NCBI GenBank assembly: GCA_964643135.1
Contig: CAZXPC010000004.1
Coordinates: forward strand, 4,716 to 68,715
Direction of reading: 5' to 3'
Length of the DNA: 64,000 bases
Source: an uncultured Candidatus Saccharibacteria bacterium
GTDB taxonomy: Bacteria; Patescibacteriota; Minisyncoccia; UBA6257; Colwellbacteraceae
Shown here: in pieces, positions 2,810 to 62,192 of the stretch
Position numbering within the stretch: the first letter of the stretch is position 1
Layout of the letters: each line of letters opens with the position of its first letter
Notes under the pieces: generated by a model
What the model was told of the DNA's origin: nothing
What the model saw: only the letters and a program-made list of their open reading frames with translations
Database searches by the model: none
Made by a program: the position numbers and the translations under genes

Positions 2810-3091
2810 TTATCTCAGGCTTGCCGGCACTTCGGCGGCGGGCAGGTCGGCGATGAGGCTGATCGCGGCTTCGCGGCAGACTTCGTGGCTAGCGCGGCCG
2901 AACAACCGCTCATATTGAGCGACAAGCTTATCCAAAGTTTCTTTCGGGTCGCCGGCAATATCAACTTCCCCACTCTTTTGATCAGTGATCTTTAAGCCCT
3001 GCACTTTCCCCGCCTCATTCCAAGCTAAGGGGCCGATAACCAGCTCCTGCTCTTTAATGATTTTTGATGCAATTTGCGCGAAGATAGTCAT
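2810..3091 (-). CDS. Hypothetical small protein (93 aa)
   Basis: ORF with a coding-like amino-acid composition, immediately upstream of and co-directional with the 3095-3949 membrane protein gene; no recognisable motif. Confidence 0.4.
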   Translation of the reverse strand: MTIFAQIASKIIKEQELVIGPLAWNEAGKVQGLKITDQKSGEVDIAGDPKETLDKLVAQYERLFGRASHEVCREAAISLIADLPAAEVPASLR

Positions 3092-12272: not shown

Positions 12273-12339
12273 AATGGAATTGAGTATACGATATATAGTA
12301 TATAGGAAAGTTTAATCAAAAAAAAGTGGAGCGGCGAGG

Positions 12340-12513
12340 GACCTGCTTCTCCCCGCCTCTCCCGCTCCCCGGCCCCTCTCCCTCAGGAACCAGGATAATC
12401 CCGCCTCCAAACTCTCTTCCGCCCCTCGGAACCAGGATATTTTTTCTACTGAAAAAATTCCCTACCGCTCGGCTACCCGCCTCCGCAGTTTCCTCAGAGC
12501 GAAACCGAGTTCT
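12340..12513. repeat. Dispersed intergenic repeat, module I (tandem partial copy plus a full 114-nt copy at 12400-12513)
   Basis: 12400-12513 is nearly identical to the reverse complement of 47757-47870 and related to 47572-47635; a shorter direct copy of the ggaaccaggata core lies at 12370-12399. Confidence 0.8.
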
Positions 12514-12569
12514 CGGCTCTGTAGAGGGAGCTTAGAGTAGTAGGAAGAACCTCCAAACTACTCTGAGGA

Positions 12570-12697
12570 GCCTCTCGGAGACGCGTAGGCGTCGAGAAGA
12601 AGAAAATCTAGCAAGATTTATCTGTGGTGACGAAGGGTAGTTTGGGGTTCTGACACGGGAGAGTGGCAAGAGGGATGATATAGCTGGGGGCGCAGAT
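12570..12697. repeat. Dispersed intergenic repeat, module IV
   Basis: Shares gcgtaggcg.cgag...gaagaaaat...gatgatatagctgggggcgc with 52250-52364; the 20-mer gatgatatagctgggggcgc is identical at 12674-12693 and 52345-52364. Confidence 0.65.
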
Positions 12698-35493: not shown

Positions 35494-35862
35494 TTATTTG
35501 GTGCCGAGCTTTTTGGTTGAAGATATAAAATTGTTTAATTTAACTCCTAGGTTTTGCATCTCAAGATACAATTGCGAATAAGCTGGATCTTTTACGAAGC
35601 CACGGTCTTTGAGTGTCTCGAGCCAGTGCATAGCCTCGATCAATGAACCACGAGCATTGTAATTGAATTTATTGCGATCCAGATAATGAAAACGGCCGAA
35701 TCCTTCGGCTATGTTAGCCCCGACAGAATCGACGGATCTTATAAATTGATCACCTATTATGCTTTTCGTTTTATAGTCAAACACTGTATAGATCTTCCAG
35801 CTTTTTGCCGAAACACCGCAGGCTAGCTGATAAACCTCTAAATCTTTTAAATCCATAATCAT
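35494..35862 (-). CDS. Four-helix-bundle protein (TIGR02436; 23S rRNA intervening-sequence protein family)
   Basis: DLEVYQLA...DQFIRSVDSVGANIAEGFGRFHY...GSLIEAMHWLE matches the family consensus. Confidence 0.75.
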   Translation of the reverse strand: MIMDLKDLEVYQLACGVSAKSWKIYTVFDYKTKSIIGDQFIRSVDSVGANIAEGFGRFHYLDRNKFNYNARGSLIEAMHWLETLKDRGFVKDPAYSQLYLEMQNLGVKLNNFISSTKKLGTK

Positions 35863-37136: not shown

Positions 37137-38432
37137 TTAGATGTTGTGGATCATGCAACCAAGGATCGTCCCAGCACCCGGGTCGGCAGAGAAGGTAGCT
37201 GTTAAGGTGTCTGCAGTTGGTACAACCTTGTTCAAGCTGACAGAGTTAGCTGAGGCGTCTAGTGAACAGGCCACTACTGCCGTTGACCTTAAACCAGTCA
37301 TAGTGAACGCGTTTGAAGTGGCGCCACCGCCGTAAGTCGTGCTGCGGATCATTGCAAACTGGTTCTGAATCAATGAAGTGGTAGCTGGAGGGGAAGTCGG
37401 GGTAAGAACAAGGGCTCCTGTACCGTACTGGATTGTTGTTTTAGATGTAGTGTTAGATGAACCAAGAACGATTGTCTGAACAGCTGCGCCAGTACCGATC
37501 TGGATACCGTGGGCAGTTGCGCCGTTACCGATCAAGATAGCGCCAGCTGCAGTACCACCTTCTAAGGTAAGCGTTGAGCTTGCGTGAGCAGAACCAACGG
37601 CAACAAGGTCAGCGCCGGTTGCGTCAGCGCCAACGTTGATAGTTGTTGTTTTTGCAACAGCATCGTTACCAACGTTCAAGTTTCCTGTACCAGCGTTGAT
37701 GGTGGTAGCAGAAGTTGAATTGGTTGAGCCGAGAACAACAGTGTTTACGGCTGCGCCAGTACCGATCTGGATACCGTGGGCAGTTGCGCCGTTACCGATC
37801 AAGATAGCGCCAGCTGCAGTACCACCTTCTAAGGTAAGCGTTGAGCTTGCGTGAGCAGAACCAACGGCAACAAGGTCAGCGCCGGTTGCGTCAGCGCCAA
37901 CGTTGATAGTTGTTGTTTTTGCAACAGCATCGTTACCAACGTTCAAGTTTCCTGTACCAGCGTTGATGGTGGTAGCAGAAGTTGAATTGGTTGAGCCGAG
38001 AACAACAGTGTTTACGGCTGCGCCTGAACCAATGCTTATTGTTTTTGCAGTAGCACCGTTACCGATCGAGATACCGCCAGTGTTTGCGGCACCGATTGAA
38101 ATGGTTGATGATGTTGCGTTGTCGAACAATGTGTTAGCGCCCCCGGTGACTGCGCCGTTGTAGGTAGTGGCACCGGTTGCGGTAGCGTTACCAAGCGTTA
38201 ATGTGCCCGTGGTCAAAGCGCCGCCCATCAAGATGTTCGATGCGGCTGCGGCTTCGAGGGTTAAGGCTCCGCTGCTGGTTGCTGTTAATGCGCCAAAAGT
38301 CAAAGTTGCTGAAGCTCCGTTGACTCCGACTACTCCGACCATCAAGGACAGTACGCCCAAGATGAGTCCTAATTTTGTTAATTTGTTTTTAATCATTTTT
38401 GTAAAATTTGTAATTGTTTTTTGGGGAATCAA
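37137..38432 (-). CDS. Secreted Ala/Thr/Gly-rich repeat protein (adhesin-like) containing a perfect tandem duplication
   Basis: Signal peptide; an 89-aa unit (…GSTNSTSATTINAGTGNLNVGNDAVAKTTTINVGADATGADLVAVGSAHASSTLTLEGGTAAGAILIGNGATAHGIQIGTGAAV…) occurs twice identically, then a third diverged copy. Confidence 0.7.
   Translation of the reverse strand: MIPQKTITNFTKMIKNKLTKLGLILGVLSLMVGVVGVNGASATLTFGALTATSSGALTLEAAAASNILMGGALTTGTLTLGNATATGATTYNGAVTGGANTLFDNATSSTISIGAANTGGISIGNGATAKTISIGSGAAVNTVVLGSTNSTSATTINAGTGNLNVGNDAVAKTTTINVGADATGADLVAVGSAHASSTLTLEGGTAAGAILIGNGATAHGIQIGTGAAVNTVVLGSTNSTSATTINAGTGNLNVGNDAVAKTTTINVGADATGADLVAVGSAHASSTLTLEGGTAAGAILIGNGATAHGIQIGTGAAVQTIVLGSSNTTSKTTIQYGTGALVLTPTSPPATTSLIQNQFAMIRSTTYGGGATSNAFTMTGLRSTAVVACSLDASANSVSLNKVVPTADTLTATFSADPGAGTILGCMIHNI
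37483..38016. repeat. Perfect 267-bp direct tandem duplication (2 copies) inside the adhesin-like gene
   Basis: Identical antisense ORFs at 37636 and 37903 are offset by exactly 267 nt; the sequence is nucleotide-identical across both units. Confidence 0.85.
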
Positions 38433-38684: not shown

Positions 38685-38820
38685 CCGCCTCCGAAATCCG
38701 ATCTACCCTTCAGGGCACAGCATAAATCTCTGCTGAGATTTTGCTTTCCGCTCACCCGCCTACGCGGGCTTCCGCGAATCCCTTCAGAATAGATTCGGAT
38801 TTCTCGGCTATGCTAAGGAG
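38685..38820. repeat. Dispersed intergenic repeat, module II (hairpin/TIR element) containing module III
   Basis: Termini cccgcctccgaaatccgatctaccc ... agattcggatttctcggctatgctaaggag are mutually inverted and homologous to the termini of 52031-52223; interior 38731-38787 is homologous to 47668-47727. Confidence 0.75.
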
Positions 38821-43941: not shown

Positions 43942-44370
43942 TTTGTAAATTAATTCGTAAAATCTTTTTGTATTATTTGGATGATACCTTGCAAGTTACC
44001 ATCATCGACCAGCTGCTCTACACATGTGAGGTTTGTGCCTTTCCCACCTCGGCCCCTCAGCCCACTTGTGAGGTGAGGGGCTAAGGCGAGGTATAAAGCG
44101 GCGAGCTGATGTTTGCAAAGATCCTAGTAACAATTTCGGACGGGGCAGATCTTAAAAAAGAAATGACCTCGAGTGAGGCGATGACGTGAACGAAACAGGT
44201 ACGAAGGATTCACCTCGGAAACGAGGAGACGCCTTGCGCCTGTAAAAATATTTGCTTAGGTAGGCCTCACTTCCTGCCTAAATCAATATTTACTTAATGC
44301 TAGCACGTGAGATCACATGCTTGCAATAGGGTAAAACGCGGCGTCAACCGCAACGTTACATGGCAGGTTC

Positions 44371-44392
44371 GACAGCTTGCGCGCCAACTCGG
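44371..44392. repeat. Dispersed intergenic repeat, module V (22-mer shared with 52146-52167)
   Basis: gacagcttgcgcgccaactcgg identical at both sites, within a 460-nt structured non-coding spacer. Confidence 0.6.
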
Positions 44393-44403
44393 ACAAGCTA
44401 AGT

Positions 44404-46794: not shown

Positions 46795-47163
46795 ATGAAA
46801 GGGATTCTAAATTTACTCGCGGCGTGGGTGGGAAACGGCATAGCTTTGTGGCTCGCCGGGCATTACATTCCGGGTATCAATGTTTCAACCGATATTAAGG
46901 AGATCGCCATCGCGGCGGGAATATTGGCCCTAATCAATCTTTTTATCAAACCTTTGTTGAAGCTGGTCTTAAGCCCGATTATCTTAATAACGCTGGGGCT
47001 GGCCGTGATCGCTATTAATGCCTTTACGATTTACGTTATGATCCAGTTGGTGCCTCAGATTGTGTCGATACCGGCCCTGGCTTCGGGCGCTGGACTTTTG
47101 ACGCTGCTTTACGTTACGATACTCGTCAGCGTAATTAACATTATTACGCGGAAGATTATCTAA
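46795..47163 (+). CDS. Phage-holin-4_2 / DUF360 family membrane protein
   Basis: LLAAWVGNGIALWLAGHYIPGINV...LINLFIKPLL... matches the DUF360 consensus (W..N..AL..A....PGI.V). Confidence 0.6.
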   Translation: MKGILNLLAAWVGNGIALWLAGHYIPGINVSTDIKEIAIAAGILALINLFIKPLLKLVLSPIILITLGLAVIAINAFTIYVMIQLVPQIVSIPALASGAGLLTLLYVTILVSVINIITRKII

Positions 47164-47178
47164 TAGCATCATATAAAA

Positions 47179-47568
47179 ATGAACTACATCAATATCGGTA
47201 TCCTTATTACAGCCATTTTGTCGACAGTTTTTGTGCTGATTCAGGACCGCGGTTCGGAAGGCGGGGCATTTACCTCCGGCGACATGGGCGGCTTTTACCA
47301 GAAAAGGCGCGGTATGGAAAAGACTATTTTCATTATGACCGTCTTATCGATTGCCTCTTTTGCCGGTTTCTCGCTTCTCAGAATCACTCACTTGGGCAAC
47401 GTTGCACCGGCGCCAATCAGCGCCAACCCGATCGAGATTAAGACTGATAACCCGAATGTTAAGGTCACGACGACTCCTGTTCCGCCCGGAACAACTGCGC
47501 CCGCCCCTGCGCCAACAACTCCAACACCAGCTCCGGCACCGGCCCCTGCTCCAGCGCCTGCTAAATAA
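47179..47568 (+). CDS. secG: Preprotein translocase subunit SecG with Pro/Ala/Thr-rich C-terminal tail
   Basis: VLIQDRGSEGGAFTSGDMGGFYQKRRGMEKTIFIMT matches the SecG core (LLQ.GKG....G.......RRG.E..L); second TM; tail APAPAPTTPTPAPAPAPAPAPAK. Confidence 0.65.
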   Translation: MNYINIGILITAILSTVFVLIQDRGSEGGAFTSGDMGGFYQKRRGMEKTIFIMTVLSIASFAGFSLLRITHLGNVAPAPISANPIEIKTDNPNVKVTTTPVPPGTTAPAPAPTTPTPAPAPAPAPAPAK

Positions 47569-47571
47569 ACC

Positions 47572-47870
47572 CCCGCCTCCGAATCTGCCTCTGCCCCTCG
47601 GAACCACAGGTGATCTCTACTGAAACTCGCCCTCCCTCATCCCACTCCGGGAAACACAATAATTTCTTGCTAGAAATTTTGTTTTTGCTCACCCGTCTTC
47701 ACGGGCTTGCGCAGATTCCCTTCATGGAACAAGGTCGGGCTAGTCTACATAGCCAAAGAACTCGGTTTCGCTCTGAGGAAACTGCGGAGGCGGGTAGCCG
47801 AGCGGTAGGGAATTTTTTCAGTAGAAAAAATATCCTGGTTCCGAGGGGCGGAAGCGAGTTCGGAGGCGGG
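47572..47870. repeat. MITE-like element: 37-nt terminal inverted repeats (module I) flanking an internal module III
   Basis: 47572-47608 (cccgcctccgaatctgcctctgcccctcggaacca) vs reverse complement of 47834-47870 (cccgcctccgaactcgcttccgcccctcggaaccagg); 47757-47870 is about 95% identical to reverse complement of 12400-12513; interior 47668-47727 homologous to 38731-38787. Confidence 0.8.
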
Positions 47871-47905
47871 TTCTCTAAATAAGAACTTTGAGATAAAATA
47901 CTATA

Positions 47906-49504
47906 ATGCGGATCAAAAAAATCTTTACTTCTCTAAACAAAACCGAGGCAATGGTCCTGATAGGAGCCTTCCTCATCTTTGTCCTCTCGGCATCTATTAA
48001 AGTGGCTTTATATGTTGAGTCGAATACCAGGATTGTTCCCGCTAAGGGCGGCGAGCTGAGGGAGGGAATGCTCGGCCAGCCGGTTTTTATCAGCCCGGTT
48101 ATCCCGACGACCAACACCGACCGGGAACTATCGAAGCTCGTTTTCGGAACGCTTGACGACATTGCTGACAGCATCACGCATTCCGGCGATGCGGCTGACG
48201 GAAAGACCTGGAACGTCAGAATTAAGCAGGGAGTTCTTTGGCAAGACGGCAAACCGGTAACTTCCGACGACGTGATTTTCACGCTCGGAGTAATCCAAGA
48301 CAAAGCCAACAACTCGCCTCTTTTTAGTTCGTTCCAGGGAATCACAGCAGAAAGGGTGAGTGAACTCGAGGTCAAGTTCACCCTACAGTCGGCCTACGCC
48401 CTTTTCGACGAGGAGAACCTGAAGAGCCTCGGCCTTATTCCCCAGCACCTCTTTTCCGACTCGGAGATCCAAAATGCGATTAAGCTTTCGGTCTATGGAC
48501 TGAAGCCGATCGGATTCGGACCATACCAGGTAGACTCGTATGACAAGGATGACCGCGGTTTTATCAGCGCTTTGTATTTGAGCTCAAACTCAACTTACTT
48601 TAGGGGCGAGCCGAATATTTCAAAATTTACAGTTAAATTTTATAAGAACGACGCCGATTTGATTAATGCTTATAAGAGAGCGCAGATCGATGCTTTCGGG
48701 TTGGGAAACGCTGCCCCGCTTTTGACGAACCGAGACGGCGGCCTTAAAGACAGCTTGGACATCAGGCATAATCTTTATAACTTAAAGTATTCTGGCTACT
48801 ATGCTCTCTTTATCAACCAAATTTACGACGATAAGAATATTCAGAACATTAAAGTGCGCGAGGCGCTGGCTAAGTCTTTGGACGTTAATAAGATTACGCG
48901 AGATATCTTGGGCGACTACGCGACTCCCCTCTATGGCCCGGTAAGCTCAACTCTGAAAGACCCGGCTACCTTCGACGCCAGCATATTGAGCGGCTTGAAA
49001 GTGACTATAACCTTGCCTGATCAGGACTTTTTGGTAAAAACGGCCGGTGAAATCAAAGCGGCCTGGGAAGCCGCCGGAGTTGAAGTTACTCTTAATACTC
49101 TGCCGCTCGATAAAATCCAAGACGCCATTAAGAAAACCGACTACGAAATAATTCTATTCGGCAACGTGACCGGCCCGTCCGGAGACTTGTTTTCGTTCTG
49201 GCATTCATCGCAAAGATTTTACCCGGGCAACAATTTATCTCTCTATCAAAATAAGAAAGTGGATAATTTGATCGAATCTTTCGGCAAGGATTTTGATGCC
49301 GATAGCCGGACCGCTGACTTGAAGCAAATAAGCGACATAATCGCGGCTGACTACCCGGCGATTTTCCTGTATTCTCCGCAATATATTTACGTGGCCGCGC
49401 CGAGCCTGCGCGGAATCGACCCGAACCTGACTGTCAGTAACTCATACGACCGTTTCCTTAATGTTGAGAAGTGGTACCTCAGGACGAGCCGGGTGTTTAG
49501 ATAG
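47906..49504 (+). CDS. ABC transporter substrate-binding protein (peptide/nickel family 5)
   Basis: 532 aa; N-terminal TM/signal anchor; size and motifs of the SBP_bac_5 family. Confidence 0.65.
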   Translation: MRIKKIFTSLNKTEAMVLIGAFLIFVLSASIKVALYVESNTRIVPAKGGELREGMLGQPVFISPVIPTTNTDRELSKLVFGTLDDIADSITHSGDAADGKTWNVRIKQGVLWQDGKPVTSDDVIFTLGVIQDKANNSPLFSSFQGITAERVSELEVKFTLQSAYALFDEENLKSLGLIPQHLFSDSEIQNAIKLSVYGLKPIGFGPYQVDSYDKDDRGFISALYLSSNSTYFRGEPNISKFTVKFYKNDADLINAYKRAQIDAFGLGNAAPLLTNRDGGLKDSLDIRHNLYNLKYSGYYALFINQIYDDKNIQNIKVREALAKSLDVNKITRDILGDYATPLYGPVSSTLKDPATFDASILSGLKVTITLPDQDFLVKTAGEIKAAWEAAGVEVTLNTLPLDKIQDAIKKTDYEIILFGNVTGPSGDLFSFWHSSQRFYPGNNLSLYQNKKVDNLIESFGKDFDADSRTADLKQISDIIAADYPAIFLYSPQYIYVAAPSLRGIDPNLTVSNSYDRFLNVEKWYLRTSRVFR

Positions 49505-49556: not shown

Positions 49557-49745
49557 ATGGTGCACCAAATGCCCGAAGACATCCACGTGACTGCGGAAGG
49601 CCACTGTGAGCAGTGCGGAGAGGAGAAGGAACTCCAGAATGGGCAGCTGGTCTGTCCGAGCCTCAACGACGGGAAGCATGCGATTTCTCTGGGGATCAAT
49701 TTCATCCACAACACCCTAGAGAAGGCCCGCAAACACCACCACTGA
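49557..49745 (+). CDS. Possible small zinc-ribbon protein (62 aa)
   Basis: CEQCG...18 aa...CPS Cys pairs; locally elevated GC (about 57%); ends in HHH. Confidence 0.3.
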   Translation: MVHQMPEDIHVTAEGHCEQCGEEKELQNGQLVCPSLNDGKHAISLGINFIHNTLEKARKHHH

Positions 49746-49959: not shown

Positions 49960-50041
49960 GGGCGGATGGTGGAACTGGCATACACCTGCGTCTCAGAAGC
50001 GCAGTCCGCAAGGATTGAGGGTTCAAATCCCTCTCCGCCCA
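49960..50041 (+). tRNA. tRNA-Leu (anticodon CAG), class II with long variable arm
   Basis: Manual fold: acceptor GGGCGGA/TCCGCCC; U8; 3-bp D-stem GTG/CAC with 11-nt D-loop GAACTGGCATA (compare E. coli tRNA-Leu GAAUUGGUAGA); anticodon stem TGCGT/GCGCA with loop CTCAGAA (U33, anticodon CAG); 13-nt variable arm; T-arm GAGGG-TTCAAAT-CCCTC; discriminator A73; CCA not encoded. Confidence 0.85.
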
Positions 50042-50086
50042 CAATAGTTATAAAAATAATTAGAAAAATAATATTAATTAATAGGT

Positions 50087-52027: not shown

Positions 52028-52030
52028 TCA

Positions 52031-52223
52031 TCCGCCTTCGAAATCCGAATCTACCTTTCGCTTAGCTCTCTCCTCGTCGAGGTGCTTCCAAGCTGTCTCG
52101 GGAGACCGCTCACGGCCGCTTGGCCTAGGGGTTTAGTCTCCCTGCGACAGCTTGCGCGCCAACTCGGGGGAGCTAGAGCTCAGGATAGATTTCGGATTTC
52201 TCTCGGCTATGTAGAGCTAAGAG
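52031..52223. repeat. Dispersed intergenic repeat, module II (hairpin/TIR element) containing module V
   Basis: Termini tccgccttcgaaatccgaatctacc ... gatagatttcggatttctctcggctatgtagagctaagag are mutually inverted and homologous to 38685-38820; contains the 22-mer at 52146-52167 shared with 44371-44392. Confidence 0.75.
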
Positions 52224-52249
52224 CCGTAAACCATAGCCCCGCAGGGAAC

Positions 52250-52364
52250 ATCGCGCAGGAGCGTAGGCGACGAGCGCGAAGAAAATTTTGAGCACAAAAT
52301 TATTCTGTTTCCCGAGGAGGCTGTGGTTGGAGGCTCGGGGTGGAGATGATATAGCTGGGGGCGC
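52250..52364. repeat. Dispersed intergenic repeat, module IV
   Basis: Homologous to 12570-12697 including the identical 20-mer gatgatatagctgggggcgc. Confidence 0.65.
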
Positions 52365-52431
52365 GGAGCTCATCACCCGAAAAAGAAAAAGGCCCGCTGA
52401 GAGATGTGAATCTATCGTCGGGTTTTGTCGT

Positions 52432-53690: not shown

Positions 53691-56600
53691 TTATAGCTTT
53701 TTGAGGCCGATCCAAACGTCTTCGCCGCTGATTTTGGTTTCGGAAAGGGCGGTGAATTTGTCGGTTTTCTTGTAATGGATGGCAGCGGTGCCGGTGTTGC
53801 TCTTAAGAGCATCGAGGTGGGCTTCGATCGCGGCTTGGATATTTTCGGAAGCCTCGATATAAAGCTCGATCTTGTCGCTCGGCTTCAGATCGGCATCTTG
53901 GCGGAGGGCTTGGACGGCGCGGTTAAGTTCGCGCATGGCGCCTTCGCGTTTTAGATCTTCGGTCAGGTTGGTGTCTAAAATAATTTCTTCCTTAGCGCCT
54001 TTGTCGAAGATCACTTTCTTAACATTAATCTCATCGGACAAGACTTCCAGCAGTTCGCCATCAAGGTTTAGGGGGTTATTTCTAATGGTGAGGCTGGCTA
54101 ACGGCTGACGAACTTTGATATTAGCTTCGGCCCGCTTGGCCAAACCGGCGGCGGCCAGGCGGCGAACTTCTTCCATCTTTTTATTTAGATCTTTGTCGAT
54201 AAATTTGGCGTGAACTTCGGGCCAATTGTCGAGGTGGACGGATTTATCGCCCGCGGCCATGGATTTGTAGAGCGCATCGGCAAAAAAGGGCGCGAAGGGA
54301 GCAATCATTTTCGAGATTTCGAAAATCACAAAAAGCAGAGTTTTAACCATGTCGTTGCGATCGCGGCTGCGGCGGATATACCAGCGCGAGAGGTCGTCGA
54401 CCAGGCTTTCCAGCGAGCGGGCGGCGAGGCCGATTTCATACTTATCCAGGCTATCGGTAGCAAATTGGACGGTTTCGCTGAGGCGGGACAAAATCCACTT
54501 ATCTAAAACGTGGTTAGGGTGCGGGTGCTCGGGCACGGGGTTGGGCGTGTGTTCAAGCGTTTCGGAAAAGAGATATGAGTTGTAGAGAATGCCGAAAAAC
54601 CTACGTGAAACTTTGCCGAGATCGGCTTCGTCAAAATCTTTATTCTCACCGGGCGGATTAACAGTATAGAAATACCAGCGGATGACGTCGGCGCCGTATT
54701 TATTGATCATTTCCCACGGATCGACGATATTGCCCTTTGATTTAGACATTTTTTGGCCGAATTTATCGTGGATTAGGCCAAGCGAGATCACGTTTTTGTA
54801 AACTTCTTTCCGGCCGAGAATGACACCCACCGCGAGCAGAGTGTAGAACCAGCCGCGGGTTTGATCCATGCCTTCGCTGATATAATCCGCCGGGAAACCG
54901 ACGCCGATCTTGTCGATCAGATCTTTATTTTCGAACGGATAGTGGACCGAGGCAAAAGGCATGGCGCCGGAATCAAACCAGACATCAGCCACGTCGGGGA
55001 TGCGCTCCATGCGTACCATTTTCCTAGAGTTCTTTTTGCCTTTATTCTTTGGTATACATTTCTCGCACTTCAAATGGACCCGGTCAATATAGGGGCGGTG
55101 AAGGTCAACTTTGCCGACCTTGTTGTATGAAATATTTTTGAAAATGATCTCGCGCCACTCGCCCGGCTGGAGCGGAACCACTGCCATGGAATCTTCGTTA
55201 GAAAGATTCTTCACGGCGGCCTCGAGCATCCAGAGAGGATCGCCGTGGCTTACAATCAAAATAGTTTTGCCTTCATGGGCTGAATCTACTTCATCCAAGA
55301 ATTGGAAAACCCTCTCTTTTACTTGGGTCAGAGTTTCCCCGCCTGAAGGGGCCTTAAGGAATTTCTCGGTAACGTTGTCGAAAAAGCTGTTATATTCTTT
55401 GGAAGTTTTCCAGTTGAAAATACCGGCATTGATTTCGCCCAAACGCTTGTCCTCGATAACCTTGGCGCTGATAGTTTTGCTCAATATTTTGACCGTCTCT
55501 TTAGCGCGAGCGAAAGGCGAAACGTAGATGAGGTCGATTTTTTCTTTTTTGAGGGCTTTCGCGGCAGCATCGGCGGCAGCCTTGCCTTCTTTGGTTAAGT
55601 GAGAAATTTTGCCCTTGGTTTCGGGGCCGGAAGCCATAACATCTTTAACATTATGTTCGGCTCCGCCGTGGCGCATCAGAATAAAGCGGTTGTTTTGAAC
55701 GGCGCTGGACTCAAGGTCGGCCAGGCTTTCTACAACCTTCACGTGGCCTTCTTTACACTGCCAGATCGGCAGAGGGGTGGCCCAATATCTTTCGCGCGAG
55801 ATAGCCCAATCTTTAGCTTCTTTGATCCATTCGCCGAACCGGCCGGTTTTGATTGAAGCGGGAATCCAGTTGACCTTATTATTAGCGGCCATCAATTTGT
55901 CACGCAAAGTCGACATAGCGATAAACCACGAATCCATGGCGTAATAAAGAAGCGGGGTCGAACAGCGCCAGCAAAAAGGATATTCGTGGGTATAAGGTTC
56001 GGTTTTGACTAGGAAATTTTCTTTGTCGAGATGATCGAAGATGCGCGATTCGGTGTCTTTCGCTTTGGCGTAAAAACCGCCGAGCTTGGGCACGTCTTTA
56101 ATGAAGAGGCCGGACTTCTCAACGGTGTGATGCTGAGGAAGCCCTAGCTTTTTGCCTAAGTTGTAGTCGTCTTCACCATACATGACGGCCGTGTGGACCA
56201 CTCCGGTGCCGTCGGTTGTCGTTACAAAATCAGCCGGGTAGACATGATAAGCTTTTTTGGCTGTTTGGCTTTTTTGCTGGAAGGGCTTAATGTCCCAAAG
56301 CGGCTCGTAAGCCAGGCCAACCAAATCTTTGCCTGTTAAAACGCCTATTTCTTTGCCTTTGGTGGTCTTAGCAAGAGGCATGTCGTGGAAATAGACGCCC
56401 TCTTTGTCGTGGATATCCTTGGCGATAATCCAATATTCCGGCTCGCCCGACCGACTGGCACCGCCGACTTTGTGTTCGATCGTGACATATTTGATCTTCT
56501 CCCCAACCGCCAAAGCCACGTTGCCCGGCAAGGTCCAAGGAGTTGTAGTCCACGAGAGAATATAAACATTACCGTTGGCTTTTAAATCTTTAGAAATTTT

Positions 56601-57263
56601 CTGACCTTTTTTGACGCGAAATTTGATATAGACCGAGGCGTCGGTTGTCTCTTTATAACCCTGGGCGATTTCGTGAGAAGAAAGCGCGGTACCGCAGCGC
56701 GTACACCAAGGCACAATTTTGTGGCCTTTATAGAGCAGTTTCTTTTGCCAAGCCTGGGCTAAGATCCACCAAAGCGATTCGATATATGTTTTTTTATAAG
56801 TAACGTAAGGATTTTTAAGATCAACCCAGTAGCCGGTGCGCTCGGTCATCCGCTCCCACTCGTCTTTATACTGCCAAACCGATTCTTTGCAGCGCTGATT
56901 GAATTCGGCAATGCCGTATTTTTCGATATCTTTTTTAGACTTGAAGCCGAGCGCTTTTTCAACTGCTATTTCCACCGGCAGGCCGTGAGTATCCCAGCCG
57001 GCTTTGCGGGGCACGTAATAACCCTTCATCGATTTATAACGGGGAATGATGTCTTTATAGCTTCGGGAGAGCATGTGGTGAAGGCCAGGCGAACCGTTGG
57101 CAGTCGGCGGGCCTTCCCAAAAGTTAAATATCTTAGGCGCTTCCTCCCCCTTCATCTGCCTTCGTTGGGCGAGAGATTTTTCGAAAATATTATATTTTTT
57201 CCAAAAGTCGAGAACTTTTTCTTCGAGATTGGGGAGATTGAATTCTTTTATGTTCTTCAGCAT
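53691..57263 (-). CDS. ileS: Isoleucine--tRNA ligase carrying an inserted histidine-phosphatase (PGAM-like) domain
   Basis: Class I motifs PPTANGSPGLHHMLS (HIGH) and KMSKSKGN; editing domain; zinc-knuckle CWRC/CEKC. Residues about 526-700 (nt about 55164-55688) contain RHGGAEHN ... LIVSHGDPLWML, the two catalytic-His motifs of the phosphoglycerate-mutase / histidine-phosphatase superfamily, inserted between IWQCKEGH and DLHRPYID. Confidence 0.85.
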   Translation of the reverse strand: MLKNIKEFNLPNLEEKVLDFWKKYNIFEKSLAQRRQMKGEEAPKIFNFWEGPPTANGSPGLHHMLSRSYKDIIPRYKSMKGYYVPRKAGWDTHGLPVEIAVEKALGFKSKKDIEKYGIAEFNQRCKESVWQYKDEWERMTERTGYWVDLKNPYVTYKKTYIESLWWILAQAWQKKLLYKGHKIVPWCTRCGTALSSHEIAQGYKETTDASVYIKFRVKKGQKISKDLKANGNVYILSWTTTPWTLPGNVALAVGEKIKYVTIEHKVGGASRSGEPEYWIIAKDIHDKEGVYFHDMPLAKTTKGKEIGVLTGKDLVGLAYEPLWDIKPFQQKSQTAKKAYHVYPADFVTTTDGTGVVHTAVMYGEDDYNLGKKLGLPQHHTVEKSGLFIKDVPKLGGFYAKAKDTESRIFDHLDKENFLVKTEPYTHEYPFCWRCSTPLLYYAMDSWFIAMSTLRDKLMAANNKVNWIPASIKTGRFGEWIKEAKDWAISRERYWATPLPIWQCKEGHVKVVESLADLESSAVQNNRFILMRHGGAEHNVKDVMASGPETKGKISHLTKEGKAAADAAAKALKKEKIDLIYVSPFARAKETVKILSKTISAKVIEDKRLGEINAGIFNWKTSKEYNSFFDNVTEKFLKAPSGGETLTQVKERVFQFLDEVDSAHEGKTILIVSHGDPLWMLEAAVKNLSNEDSMAVVPLQPGEWREIIFKNISYNKVGKVDLHRPYIDRVHLKCEKCIPKNKGKKNSRKMVRMERIPDVADVWFDSGAMPFASVHYPFENKDLIDKIGVGFPADYISEGMDQTRGWFYTLLAVGVILGRKEVYKNVISLGLIHDKFGQKMSKSKGNIVDPWEMINKYGADVIRWYFYTVNPPGENKDFDEADLGKVSRRFFGILYNSYLFSETLEHTPNPVPEHPHPNHVLDKWILSRLSETVQFATDSLDKYEIGLAARSLESLVDDLSRWYIRRSRDRNDMVKTLLFVIFEISKMIAPFAPFFADALYKSMAAGDKSVHLDNWPEVHAKFIDKDLNKKMEEVRRLAAAGLAKRAEANIKVRQPLASLTIRNNPLNLDGELLEVLSDEINVKKVIFDKGAKEEIILDTNLTEDLKREGAMRELNRAVQALRQDADLKPSDKIELYIEASENIQAAIEAHLDALKSNTGTAAIHYKKTDKFTALSETKISGEDVWIGLKKL

Positions 57264-57334
57264 GAGCTAAATTCTATCAAAATCAGCCTAGTTTTACTAG
57301 AATTTGACACGATTTTGGCGAGTGTCAAAGGCTC

Positions 57335-57476
57335 ACAAACCCTCCCCTCAGGAACCGGGATAAATCTCTTCCAGCGAGAGATTTTCCCTCAGCGCTCAGC
57401 CAGTGGTCGCCGTAATATAAAACGGCGCACCTAGCTCCACTGGCTTCCGCGATGTTCCTTCAGAAAGGGTTTGTTC
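57335..57476. repeat. Dispersed intergenic repeat (related to module I core ggaacc.ggata) with inverted termini, in the ileS 5' leader
   Basis: cacaaaccctcccctcaggaaccgggataaatc ... gaaagggtttgttcg; termini acaaaccct / agggtttgt inverted; several internal hairpins (gccagtgg...ccactggc). Confidence 0.55.
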
Positions 57477-57490
57477 GTTATGGAAACCAC

Positions 57491-61425: not shown

Positions 61426-61497
61426 CCACGCCGAAGATTAAAGCCATTTTATAAAAATTGATTTTGAATCGGAGCGGGGGTAGGCTGAAATTAGCAT

Positions 61498-62136
61498 ATG
61501 AAGGCGGTTATATTCGATATTGATGGTACGCTCACGCCGGAAATCTCGTGGCTATTTTTGACCGAAGCTCTGGGCGCGTCTAAAAGCGAGCATTTAGAGA
61601 TATTTAACAGCATGAAAGCCGGTGAAATTGACCTGCCCCTGGCAACCAGCCAGTTACTTCGACTATGGCAAGCGAGCGGACAGGCTAATTTGGGAAAACT
61701 TAGAGAAATTTTTGACAAAGTAAGTCTGCGTGAAGGAGCGCTCGAAATCGTGAATTACCTGCGAAGCGAAAATTATAAACTCTGCCTCATCTCCGGTTCG
61801 ATGGGCTTATACGCCGAGACGATTGCTAAAAAGTTAGGGGTTGAAGCGTATTTCAGCAACACCGAGCTGATTTTTGATAAGGCCGGCCAATTAATCAATT
61901 TTAAATATCAGCCGGACCAGGGCGCGATCAAACTAAAACAGCTTATGGAATTTTGCGCGCGCGAAAATATAACGCTCAAGGATTGCGCGGTGATCGGCGA
62001 CAGCGGAAACGATTTGGAAATTTTTAAAGCAACCGGACACGGCATTATTTTGAAGGGCGGCACACCGGAGCCCACCCTCGGGGACGCTGCTTGGAAAAAA
62101 ATAGAGGATTTGGGGGAAATTAAAGCCATTTTATAA
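61498..62136 (+). CDS. HAD-superfamily hydrolase (phosphoserine-phosphatase-like)
   Basis: Motif I FDIDGTLT, motif II ISGS, C-terminal GDSGNDLE. Confidence 0.75.
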   Translation: MKAVIFDIDGTLTPEISWLFLTEALGASKSEHLEIFNSMKAGEIDLPLATSQLLRLWQASGQANLGKLREIFDKVSLREGALEIVNYLRSENYKLCLISGSMGLYAETIAKKLGVEAYFSNTELIFDKAGQLINFKYQPDQGAIKLKQLMEFCARENITLKDCAVIGDSGNDLEIFKATGHGIILKGGTPEPTLGDAAWKKIEDLGEIKAIL

Positions 62137-62192
62137 AAATTGATTTTGGTTCTGCCCGGTAGTACGCTGAAATTAGGATTCGAGGGTTTGAC

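Follow-up and report, generated by a model that had tools for sequence, protein, structure and literature searches.

The region examined here, positions 47572-47870 of the window (the whole stretch of DNA that was analysed, 64,000 nt long), lies between secG and a gene that Pfam places among the family-5 solute-binding proteins (SBP), homologues of which put the window in the Parcubacteria/Patescibacteria. The SecG ORF (47179-47568), whose match to the Pfam SecG family is weak only, encodes a Pro/Ala-rich C-terminal tail, and this tail does run up to the repeat, as the earlier note on this DNA had stated, its stop codon TAA (47566-47568) standing 3 nt ahead of the left arm. In the same note the region was described as a single 300-bp MITE bounded by terminal inverted repeats (TIRs). 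We find instead that 47572-47870 is a cluster of three copies of one unit, two full and one truncated, which contains no gene and is not one transposon, and that it is the core of the unit and not the termini that is conserved. The sole ORF within the region (47610-47882) is without a Pfam match.

The unit is about 100-125 nt long and folds into a long helix, P1, which ends in a three-way junction carrying two hairpins, hp1 and hp2; copies were scored with a covariance model, R1, built from 33 of them. Read from the secG side, the cluster begins with a 5'-truncated unit on the minus strand (47572-47632), which retains only its 3' half, starting at the hp2 loop and ending with the 3' terminus ...TTCGGAGGCGGG. 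Next comes a complete unit, U4 (47633-47737, minus strand; R1 70.9 bits, E = 1e-19), with hp2 at 47656-47682 (loop AGCA on the minus strand, bulged A) and hp1 at 47687-47714, where the internal loop is GCA/GA in place of GGA/GA; its minimum free energy (MFE) fold recovers P1 and the three-way junction at -58.1 kcal/mol, compared with -38.7 kcal/mol for the complement. The second complete unit, U5 (47744-47870, plus strand; R1 66.3 bits, E = 3e-18; covariance-model core 47759-47858), has a full P1, formed by 47758-47780 paired with 47839-47861, and a 3' tail, with hp1 at 47781-47806 and hp2 at 47807-47836 (loop AGTA, bulged A at 47832), and folds at -58.4 against -36.9 kcal/mol for its complement. 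The 5' leaders of the two units (GGCTAGTCT meeting ACATAGCC) join in a central hairpin, GGCTA-gtctaca-TAGCC (47738-47754), within which position 47744 is the boundary of identity with a partner copy at 12.4 kb. The entire 316-nt region folds far below shuffled sequences on both strands (z = -9 and -10).

U4 and U5 thus stand 5'-to-5' with their 3' ends pointing outward, and therefore the apparent TIRs are the 3' P1 strands and tails of opposed units. The inverted termini themselves are real and their alignment holds up, although at an ungapped length of 35 nt and not the 37 nt first given: the left arm (47572-47606) and the right arm (47836-47870) are complementary at 30 of 35 positions (86%), and a gapped alignment lengthens the match to 55 nt (47572-47625 against 47870-47816; 78%, BLAST E = 5e-6). 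This alignment, together with direct reading of the sequence, makes the truncated unit homologous to 47816-47870, so that the left arm is the same segment of the truncated copy as the right arm is of U5. The right arm, being the 3' strand of U5 P1 plus the 3' tail, has two alternative partners, the 5' strand of U5 itself and the left arm. A degenerate form of the arm pattern was matched three times in the window and not once in 100 shuffled sequences. The internal module that had been noticed as shared with other sites was likewise recovered, 47668-47724 matching 38731-38786 at 81% and 47648-47683 matching 52279-52314, on the opposite strand, at 83%. Pieces in common with this region were seen in the long intergenic gaps at 12.3-12.7 kb, 38.7 kb and 52.0-52.4 kb, the common piece being two adjoining hairpins.

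The spacing of secG and the SBP gene differs widely among relatives. It is 337 nt in the window, with 2.5 units, 149 nt with one unit in L003 (SBP 56% identical to that of the window), 138 nt with a different hairpin in L096, 38 nt in L004 (SBP 64% identical) and 20 nt in L098, and there is none in L097, where the genes overlap. Compared with at least one relative, L004, the cluster is therefore an insertion; L004 is the nearest relative with an empty site, at an SBP identity of only 64%. A scan of 47100-48100 gave no sigma-70-like promoter and no intrinsic terminator; TATAAT is present at 47902-47907 in the window, and a -10-like TGTAGAAT stands directly ahead of the SBP start codon in L003 and L096. 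It follows that the cluster fills the stretch from the secG stop codon to the probable SBP promoter, and we infer that secG and the SBP gene are bystanders.

Such an insertion could in principle be that of a classical non-autonomous DDE-type MITE, for which a transposase from elsewhere would bind the ~35-bp TIRs (CCCGCCTCCGAA...) as double-stranded DNA and produce an 8-bp duplication of CTAAATAA. An 8-nt direct repeat CTAAATAA does flank the arms (47561-47568, which includes the secG stop codon, and 47875-47882, both read on the plus strand), and removal of the element with one repeat brings the secG stop codon and the SBP promoter back into a compact junction, the predicted empty site being CTAAATAA joined straight to GAACTTTGAG; this flanking repeat better suits a cut-and-paste DDE mechanism than the mobile reading that we prefer below. 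In addition, two units arranged with their 3' ends outward have the geometry of a minimal two-ended element. However, the termini are not conserved in the family, and the left arm, which belongs to a truncated unit and is not a designed end, occurs in no other window copy. For one element the CTAAATAA pair has P ~0.003-0.011, but no flanking repeat of at least 8 nt was found at the 24 other family elements, and one match in 25 elements at that probability each is unremarkable; the target-site duplication looked for on the strength of the earlier note is thus seen at this locus and at none of the others. The exact and degenerate TIR patterns had no match in 185,579 species-representative genomes or in the JGI metagenomes, from which it also follows that the source genome is absent from those collections, and the piece that was recently copied is a single 127-nt unit and not the 300-bp composite. 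By the features that define MITEs, the family is small, non-coding and multi-copy, and it lacks conserved TIRs and a fixed-length duplication at most copies. Taken as a whole, we regard a DDE-type MITE as an improbable description of this region.

Fold and covariation of the unit

In hairpin hp1 a short outer stem leads to a conserved internal loop, 5'-GGA/GA-3', which is followed by an inner stem and a loop of variable sequence. In hp2 the lower stem has 2-9 bp and the A/T-rich upper stem 6-8 bp; an A is invariably bulged on the 3' side, and the loop of 4 nt has A as its last base, AGCA being the usual sequence. The hp2 stems vary in sequence yet pair (AATTTTG/CAAAATT, AATTTCT/AGAAATT, AAATCTC/GAGATTT, ATCCGCC/GGCGGAT), and P1 is wholly different among lineages and still paired (TTTTTTCTAGT with ACTAGAAAAAA, GGGCACTATGGGAAC with GTTCCCATAGTGCCC). 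Over the 23-45 copies that were aligned, it is the internal core with its three-way junction that is conserved, while the outer arms vary and covary.

This structure was recovered by RNAalifold alone from a plain MAFFT alignment of 23 units to which no structure had been fitted: it returned P1, the inner stem of hp1 and hp2, with compensatory changes in 24 of its 25 pairs. When the full structure was scored on the same alignment, 81.3% of cells were paired compared with 61.5% in shuffled alignments, changes on both sides were seen in 30 of 34 pairs, and covariation was 0.569 against 0.234 for shuffles, none of 500 of which reached it, these being counts that are inflated by the kinship of the sequences and are not probabilities; controls in which the pairing partners were slid gave at most 0.238. 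The 45-sequence model alignment gave a similar picture of pairing and covariation, and from this gappy alignment RNAalifold recovered hp2 alone. We take the fold signal to be real because the slid controls are low and the stem sequences are varied. In single-sequence MFE folds the junction was recovered in nearly all units, and in each of the 30 units compared the modelled strand gave a more stable fold than its reverse complement. The outer stem of hp1 has 23 G-U pairs and only 4 A-C pairs. Strand asymmetry and G-U excess together lead to the conclusion that one particular strand folds, be it as RNA or as single-stranded DNA.

This last result weighs on the idea that the units act as DNA, that is, as cruciform or hairpin sites for host proteins in nucleoid organisation, replication restart, recombination or the termination of replication or transcription, with spread being secondary. 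The strictly intergenic position of the units, often between a terminator and a promoter, would fit such a role, as would an orientation that is independent of transcription and the head-to-head pairing of adjacent units described below. However, the stem sequences covary freely, so that the sequence of the duplex is not what is read, and the G-U over A-C bias and the strand asymmetry indicate one folded strand; moreover, we know of no candidate protein. We give little credence to a DNA-site function.

A search of Rfam 15 at gathering thresholds gave no match in the window and only tRNA and tmRNA in 15 related loci, and a permissive search (E up to 10) with three units yielded nothing meaningful. 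Hammerhead, twister, K-turn, group II intron D5/D6, SRP, retron and tRNA-like structures were considered and rejected, either for a misfit with their conserved nucleotides or for want of an Rfam match. In the literature on repeats and RNA motifs of CPR/Patescibacteria we found no description of the unit, and the repeat family appears to be undescribed.

Copies in the window and in other genomes

A search of the window with R1 returned seven significant units (E from 1e-7 to 1e-19), every one of them intergenic, which amounts to about one per 9 kb. The description of this DNA as repeated, non-coding and non-autonomous was accordingly borne out, as was the lack of a transposase: Pfam scans of the ~58 window ORFs showed no transposase, integrase, reverse transcriptase or HUH/Y1 domain. 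Besides U4 and U5, the copies are U1 (12412-12511, minus strand, 65.8 bits) and its head-to-head partner U2 (12550-12647, plus strand, 42.0 bits, E = 1e-10); the solo unit U3 (38696-38800, minus strand, 70.9 bits); U6 in the gap between the RNase J and TrpRS genes (52227-52329, plus strand, 58.3 bits); and U7 (57334-57477, minus strand, 32.7 bits, E = 1e-7), which has a 41-nt insertion in hp1. U7 and its counterpart in L003 both lie between an intrinsic terminator, which at U7 is that of the upstream gene, and the -10 box of the IleRS gene.

U1 is a near-identical copy of U5. The right arm had been presented as the 95%-identical partner of 12400-12513, and this partner is real, with 98% identity over 114 nt (47757-47870); the shared piece, however, is not an arm but a complete 127-nt unit (12400-12525 against 47744-47870, inverted, 96%). 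Over model positions U5 and U1 are 99% identical, and the other window units are 40-62% alike. The sequences thus indicate that one whole unit was recently copied between 12.4 kb and 47.8 kb. This near-identity could also come from gene conversion between resident units and not from transposition. Fragments comprising the 3' half of a unit were found just 3' of complete units in three cases, namely 47572-47632 and 12330-12399 in the window, the latter beyond U1, and 7095-7140 in L003; both fragments and nested insertions are common in the family.

Several other features of the window were recorded beside the units. To the left of U6, 52030-52215 (minus strand) shares with U3 the 5' leader, the P1 arms and the 3' terminus (38685-38711 against 52032-52059, 89%), and differs in a core of ~110 nt; it was missed by the covariance model, and a 31-nt piece of its core recurs at 44370-44400 (90%), adjoining the 3' end of a DeoR-like gene. 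That piece falls in a 462-nt intergenic gap (43942-44403) that has no repeat unit and holds a 30-nt palindrome (44052-44081). A 23-nt motif, GATGATATAGCTGGGGGCGC(N)GA, stands at the right-hand edges of two composites (12674-12696 and 52345-52367, 95% identical) and is missing from all 99 comparison loci; its opposite strand reads like the 5' beginning of a tRNA, but ARAGORN finds no tRNA there. The gap between the SBP and RNase J genes contains a Cys-rich, zinc-ribbon-like ORF of 62 aa (49557-49745) and the only tRNA of the window, Leu-CAG (49960-50042), to which, unlike the tRNAs of other lineages described below, no repeat unit is attached. The IleRS gene (53691-57263) encodes a histidine-phosphatase domain (PF00300) within the catalytic domain, which is seen also in L003, L098 and L099. 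At 35494-35862 lies a gene of the 23S-rRNA-intervening-sequence protein family (PF05635), the counterpart of which in L099 is also weakly flagged as bAvd, and no reverse transcriptase was seen in the window; bAvd is the accessory protein of diversity-generating retroelements. A 267-nt tandem duplication (37416-37949, 91%) with 34-nt sub-repeats is found inside a 431-aa gene without a Pfam match (37137-38432), and a 68-nt direct repeat (61437-61504 and 62119-62186, 82%) upstream of two successive plus-strand genes may be a duplicated promoter or leader region.

Among relatives, L003, a 14-kb locus, contains seven units by R1 search, which form subfamilies of its own at 72-77% identity; such genome-specific subfamilies look like amplification bursts. 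Orthologous gaps may be filled or empty: the gap between the iPGM and holin genes is 9 nt long and empty in the window and is filled in L003 and L096, and 13 kb of L098 are free of units. The window and L003 have three occupied gaps in common, and by our own count the sharing of 3 of 8 gaps has P ~0.18. Positional orthology of these units was rejected as unproven, syntenic copies being no more alike than non-syntenic ones, and the shared occupancy could reflect long retention, a point against the mobile reading.

In four genomes, all six adjacent pairs of units are head-to-head (minus, plus), for which the chance expectation is (1/4)^6. An overall TIR is missing from most copies, which stand alone as single hairpins or form simple head-to-head pairs (e.g. 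L003 1354-1573). Solo units between co-directional genes are antisense in seven cases and sense in four, which argues against a cis-acting leader or riboswitch of the sense strand.

Farther afield, R1 found copies in metagenome-assembled genomes (MAGs) labelled Zambryskibacteria, Taylorbacteria, Parcubacteria and Saccharibacteria and in low-GC metagenome contigs. An exact 19-mer of hp2 was matched in MAGs labelled Zambryskibacteria (two genomes), Taylorbacteria, Parcubacteria group and Saccharibacteria, and also in two MAGs labelled "Nitrospira" and "Gammaproteobacteria", the binning of these two being taken as given. A 20-mer of hp1 had 63 matching loci in metagenomes, 59 of which are chance matches in high-GC DNA and four of which are on low-GC contigs, and neither oligomer had a match in viral contigs. 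Three units from loci labelled Zambryskibacteria or Saccharibacteria (L010 4521-4698, L024 6681-6857 and L030 4475-4647) share an insertion of ~75 nt between hp1 and hp2 that has the look of another small element lodged within the first.

Units in two MAGs, one of Taylorbacteria and one labelled Saccharibacteria, follow tRNA genes at a distance of 8-40 nt and share their strand (L006 1515-1750; L014 16-207 and 2411-2789; L009 4182-4417). Here the 3' P1 strand exactly duplicates 18 nt from the 3' end of the neighbouring tRNA (CGAATCCCTCCCTTTCCG in L006, CGAATCCTGCCCTACGCA in L014), the 5' P1 strand is likewise complementary to the duplicated tRNA segment, and several small elements can follow one tRNA in tandem, each ending in a copy of the tRNA 3' end. 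Copies of this kind are a hallmark of site-specific insertion at the 3' ends of tRNA genes. Ahead of the unit stands a short, conserved hairpin (AATGGC...GCCATT). The genes beside these units are housekeeping genes only, with no RAYT/Y1, integrase, reverse transcriptase or transposase among them.

A rival view is that the units are functional structured RNAs maintained by the host, either sRNA genes or cis elements for processing, stability, termination or protein binding, which multiply occasionally by duplication or recombination; under this view the secG-SBP cluster would be two RNA modules in opposite orientation. Strong covariation and conserved junction nucleotides across distant Patescibacteria lineages, as well as helices that are rich in G-U pairs and fold on one strand in every unit tested, are what an RNA should show, and the three gaps occupied alike in the window and L003 point the same way. 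Transcription is also plausible: the tRNA-linked copies are probably co-transcribed with the tRNA since they are on the same strand and so close downstream, and the cluster is probably transcribed since no terminator separates it from secG. Nevertheless, the units have no uniform orientation with respect to the genes beside them, U7 and the matching unit of L003 sit between an intrinsic terminator and the next promoter, and promoter-like sites were not found around the cluster. The patchy occurrence among close relatives, with L098 as an example, the frequency of fragments and nested insertions, and subfamilies that resemble amplification bursts speak against host maintenance as well, and we consider a host-maintained RNA rather unlikely, though it ranks next after the reading preferred below.

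Likeness to known repeats and a possible mode of spread

The account that we prefer, with a confidence that is about evenly balanced, is that the unit is a non-autonomous repeat which is recognised by its structure and spreads via a single-stranded intermediate, according to a logic like that of REPINs or attC sites. The units would spread or be homogenised through an intermediate of RNA or single-stranded DNA, and a putative protein encoded elsewhere in the genome would recognise this intermediate by its shape, that is, by the junction, the bulged A and the loop, much as REP/REPIN sequences are recognised by RAYT and integron attC sites by IntI. In its favour are the wide occurrence of the unit, its covariation and its strand polarity, the signs of copying and turnover in U1 and U5 and in gaps that are filled in one genome and empty in another, the uniform head-to-head pairing, the tRNA 3'-end copies of other lineages and the lack of a transposase in the window.

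REP/BIME elements and REPINs are reportedly mobilised by RAYT (Y1/HUH) transposases. Like them, the units are extragenic, of high copy number and without an ORF, and are imperfect palindromes that are apparently read as folded single strands; they occur as solo copies and as inverted doublets (the six head-to-head pairs) without target-site duplication, compensatory changes keep the hairpin, sequence populations are genome-specific, and residence in intergenic regions is long. However, REPs are simple hairpins of ~20-40 nt with a conserved 5' GTAG, whereas the unit has 100-125 nt and a three-way junction, and GTAG is found in it only as a variable hp1 loop or a subfamily-specific leader. REP sequences are genome- or genus-specific, whereas the core of the unit is kept across class-level lineages, and the single-copy RAYT gene that accompanies REPs in a genome has no counterpart within the 64-kb window.

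Correia/NEMIS, ERIC, BOX, RUP and bcr1 are MITE-like structured repeats of bacteria. The units resemble them in being non-coding, intergenic and multi-copy, in a modular or mosaic build within the 100-300 bp range, in forming stable RNA hairpins if co-transcribed, and in breaking short-read assemblies. The latter elements are defined by conserved TIRs and usually a fixed short duplication (TA for Correia), whereas in the unit conservation lies in the internal junction, the termini being variable and covarying, and there is no consistent duplication.

With integron attC sites, which are 57-141 nt long, the units have in common that structure and not sequence is kept, that extrahelical bases mark the strand and that one strand folds productively. 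In contrast to attC sites, no RYYYAAC/GTTRRRY core sites were seen at the base of P1 (by eye only), and the units form no cassette arrays, lie in both orientations between housekeeping genes and are accompanied by no intI. CIME-like elements are att-flanked elements without an integrase at tRNA 3' ends. In L006 and L014 a unit is similarly bracketed by a tRNA 3' end and the exact 18-nt copy of it, and elements follow the tRNA in tandem. However, these elements measure only ~130-150 nt, no integrase is nearby, the window copies are not beside a tRNA gene, and the complementarity of the 5' P1 strand to the tRNA segment is not explained by a simple att duplication.

Certain points also stand against spread by structure recognition. 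No mobilising enzyme was found in the window or beside the tRNA-linked copies, and no polymorphism between empty and filled sites was seen within a single population. In addition, the conservation of junction and helices across class-level lineages exceeds that of usual selfish repeats and suits a host-useful RNA equally. A further variant would be that the family is an undescribed, Patescibacteria-wide structured RNA that is mobile via an RNA or single-stranded intermediate, in the manner of a SINE or guide RNA, and that its insertion sites are chosen by pairing of P1 with the target. This is hinted at by P1 being a copy of a tRNA 3' end plus its complement in other lineages, by the recurrence of copies that are 5'-truncated and retain the 3' end, and by joins that are always head-to-head; as a whole, we hold this variant to be unlikely.

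Short-read (Logan) contigs end inside units at several places. Contigs L001 and L002, which encode the identical SecG, both stop inside U4 (at 8498-8540 in L001 and at the end of L002), and L096 has such an end at 2996-3042; the family thus appears to break assemblies of these genomes. In practical terms, the units would be a cause of assembly breaks in CPR MAGs.

Although the genomes of Patescibacteria are tiny and streamlined, this one carries about one unit per 9 kb, with a core that is conserved between class-level lineages and has no counterpart in Rfam. Should the units be functional RNAs, they would constitute a large unrecognised class of ncRNA; should they be selfish, they would represent, in reduced genomes, a new type of mobile element that is recognised by its structure. 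The covariance model provides a handle for a census of the family and then for phylogenetic profiling toward the partner protein.
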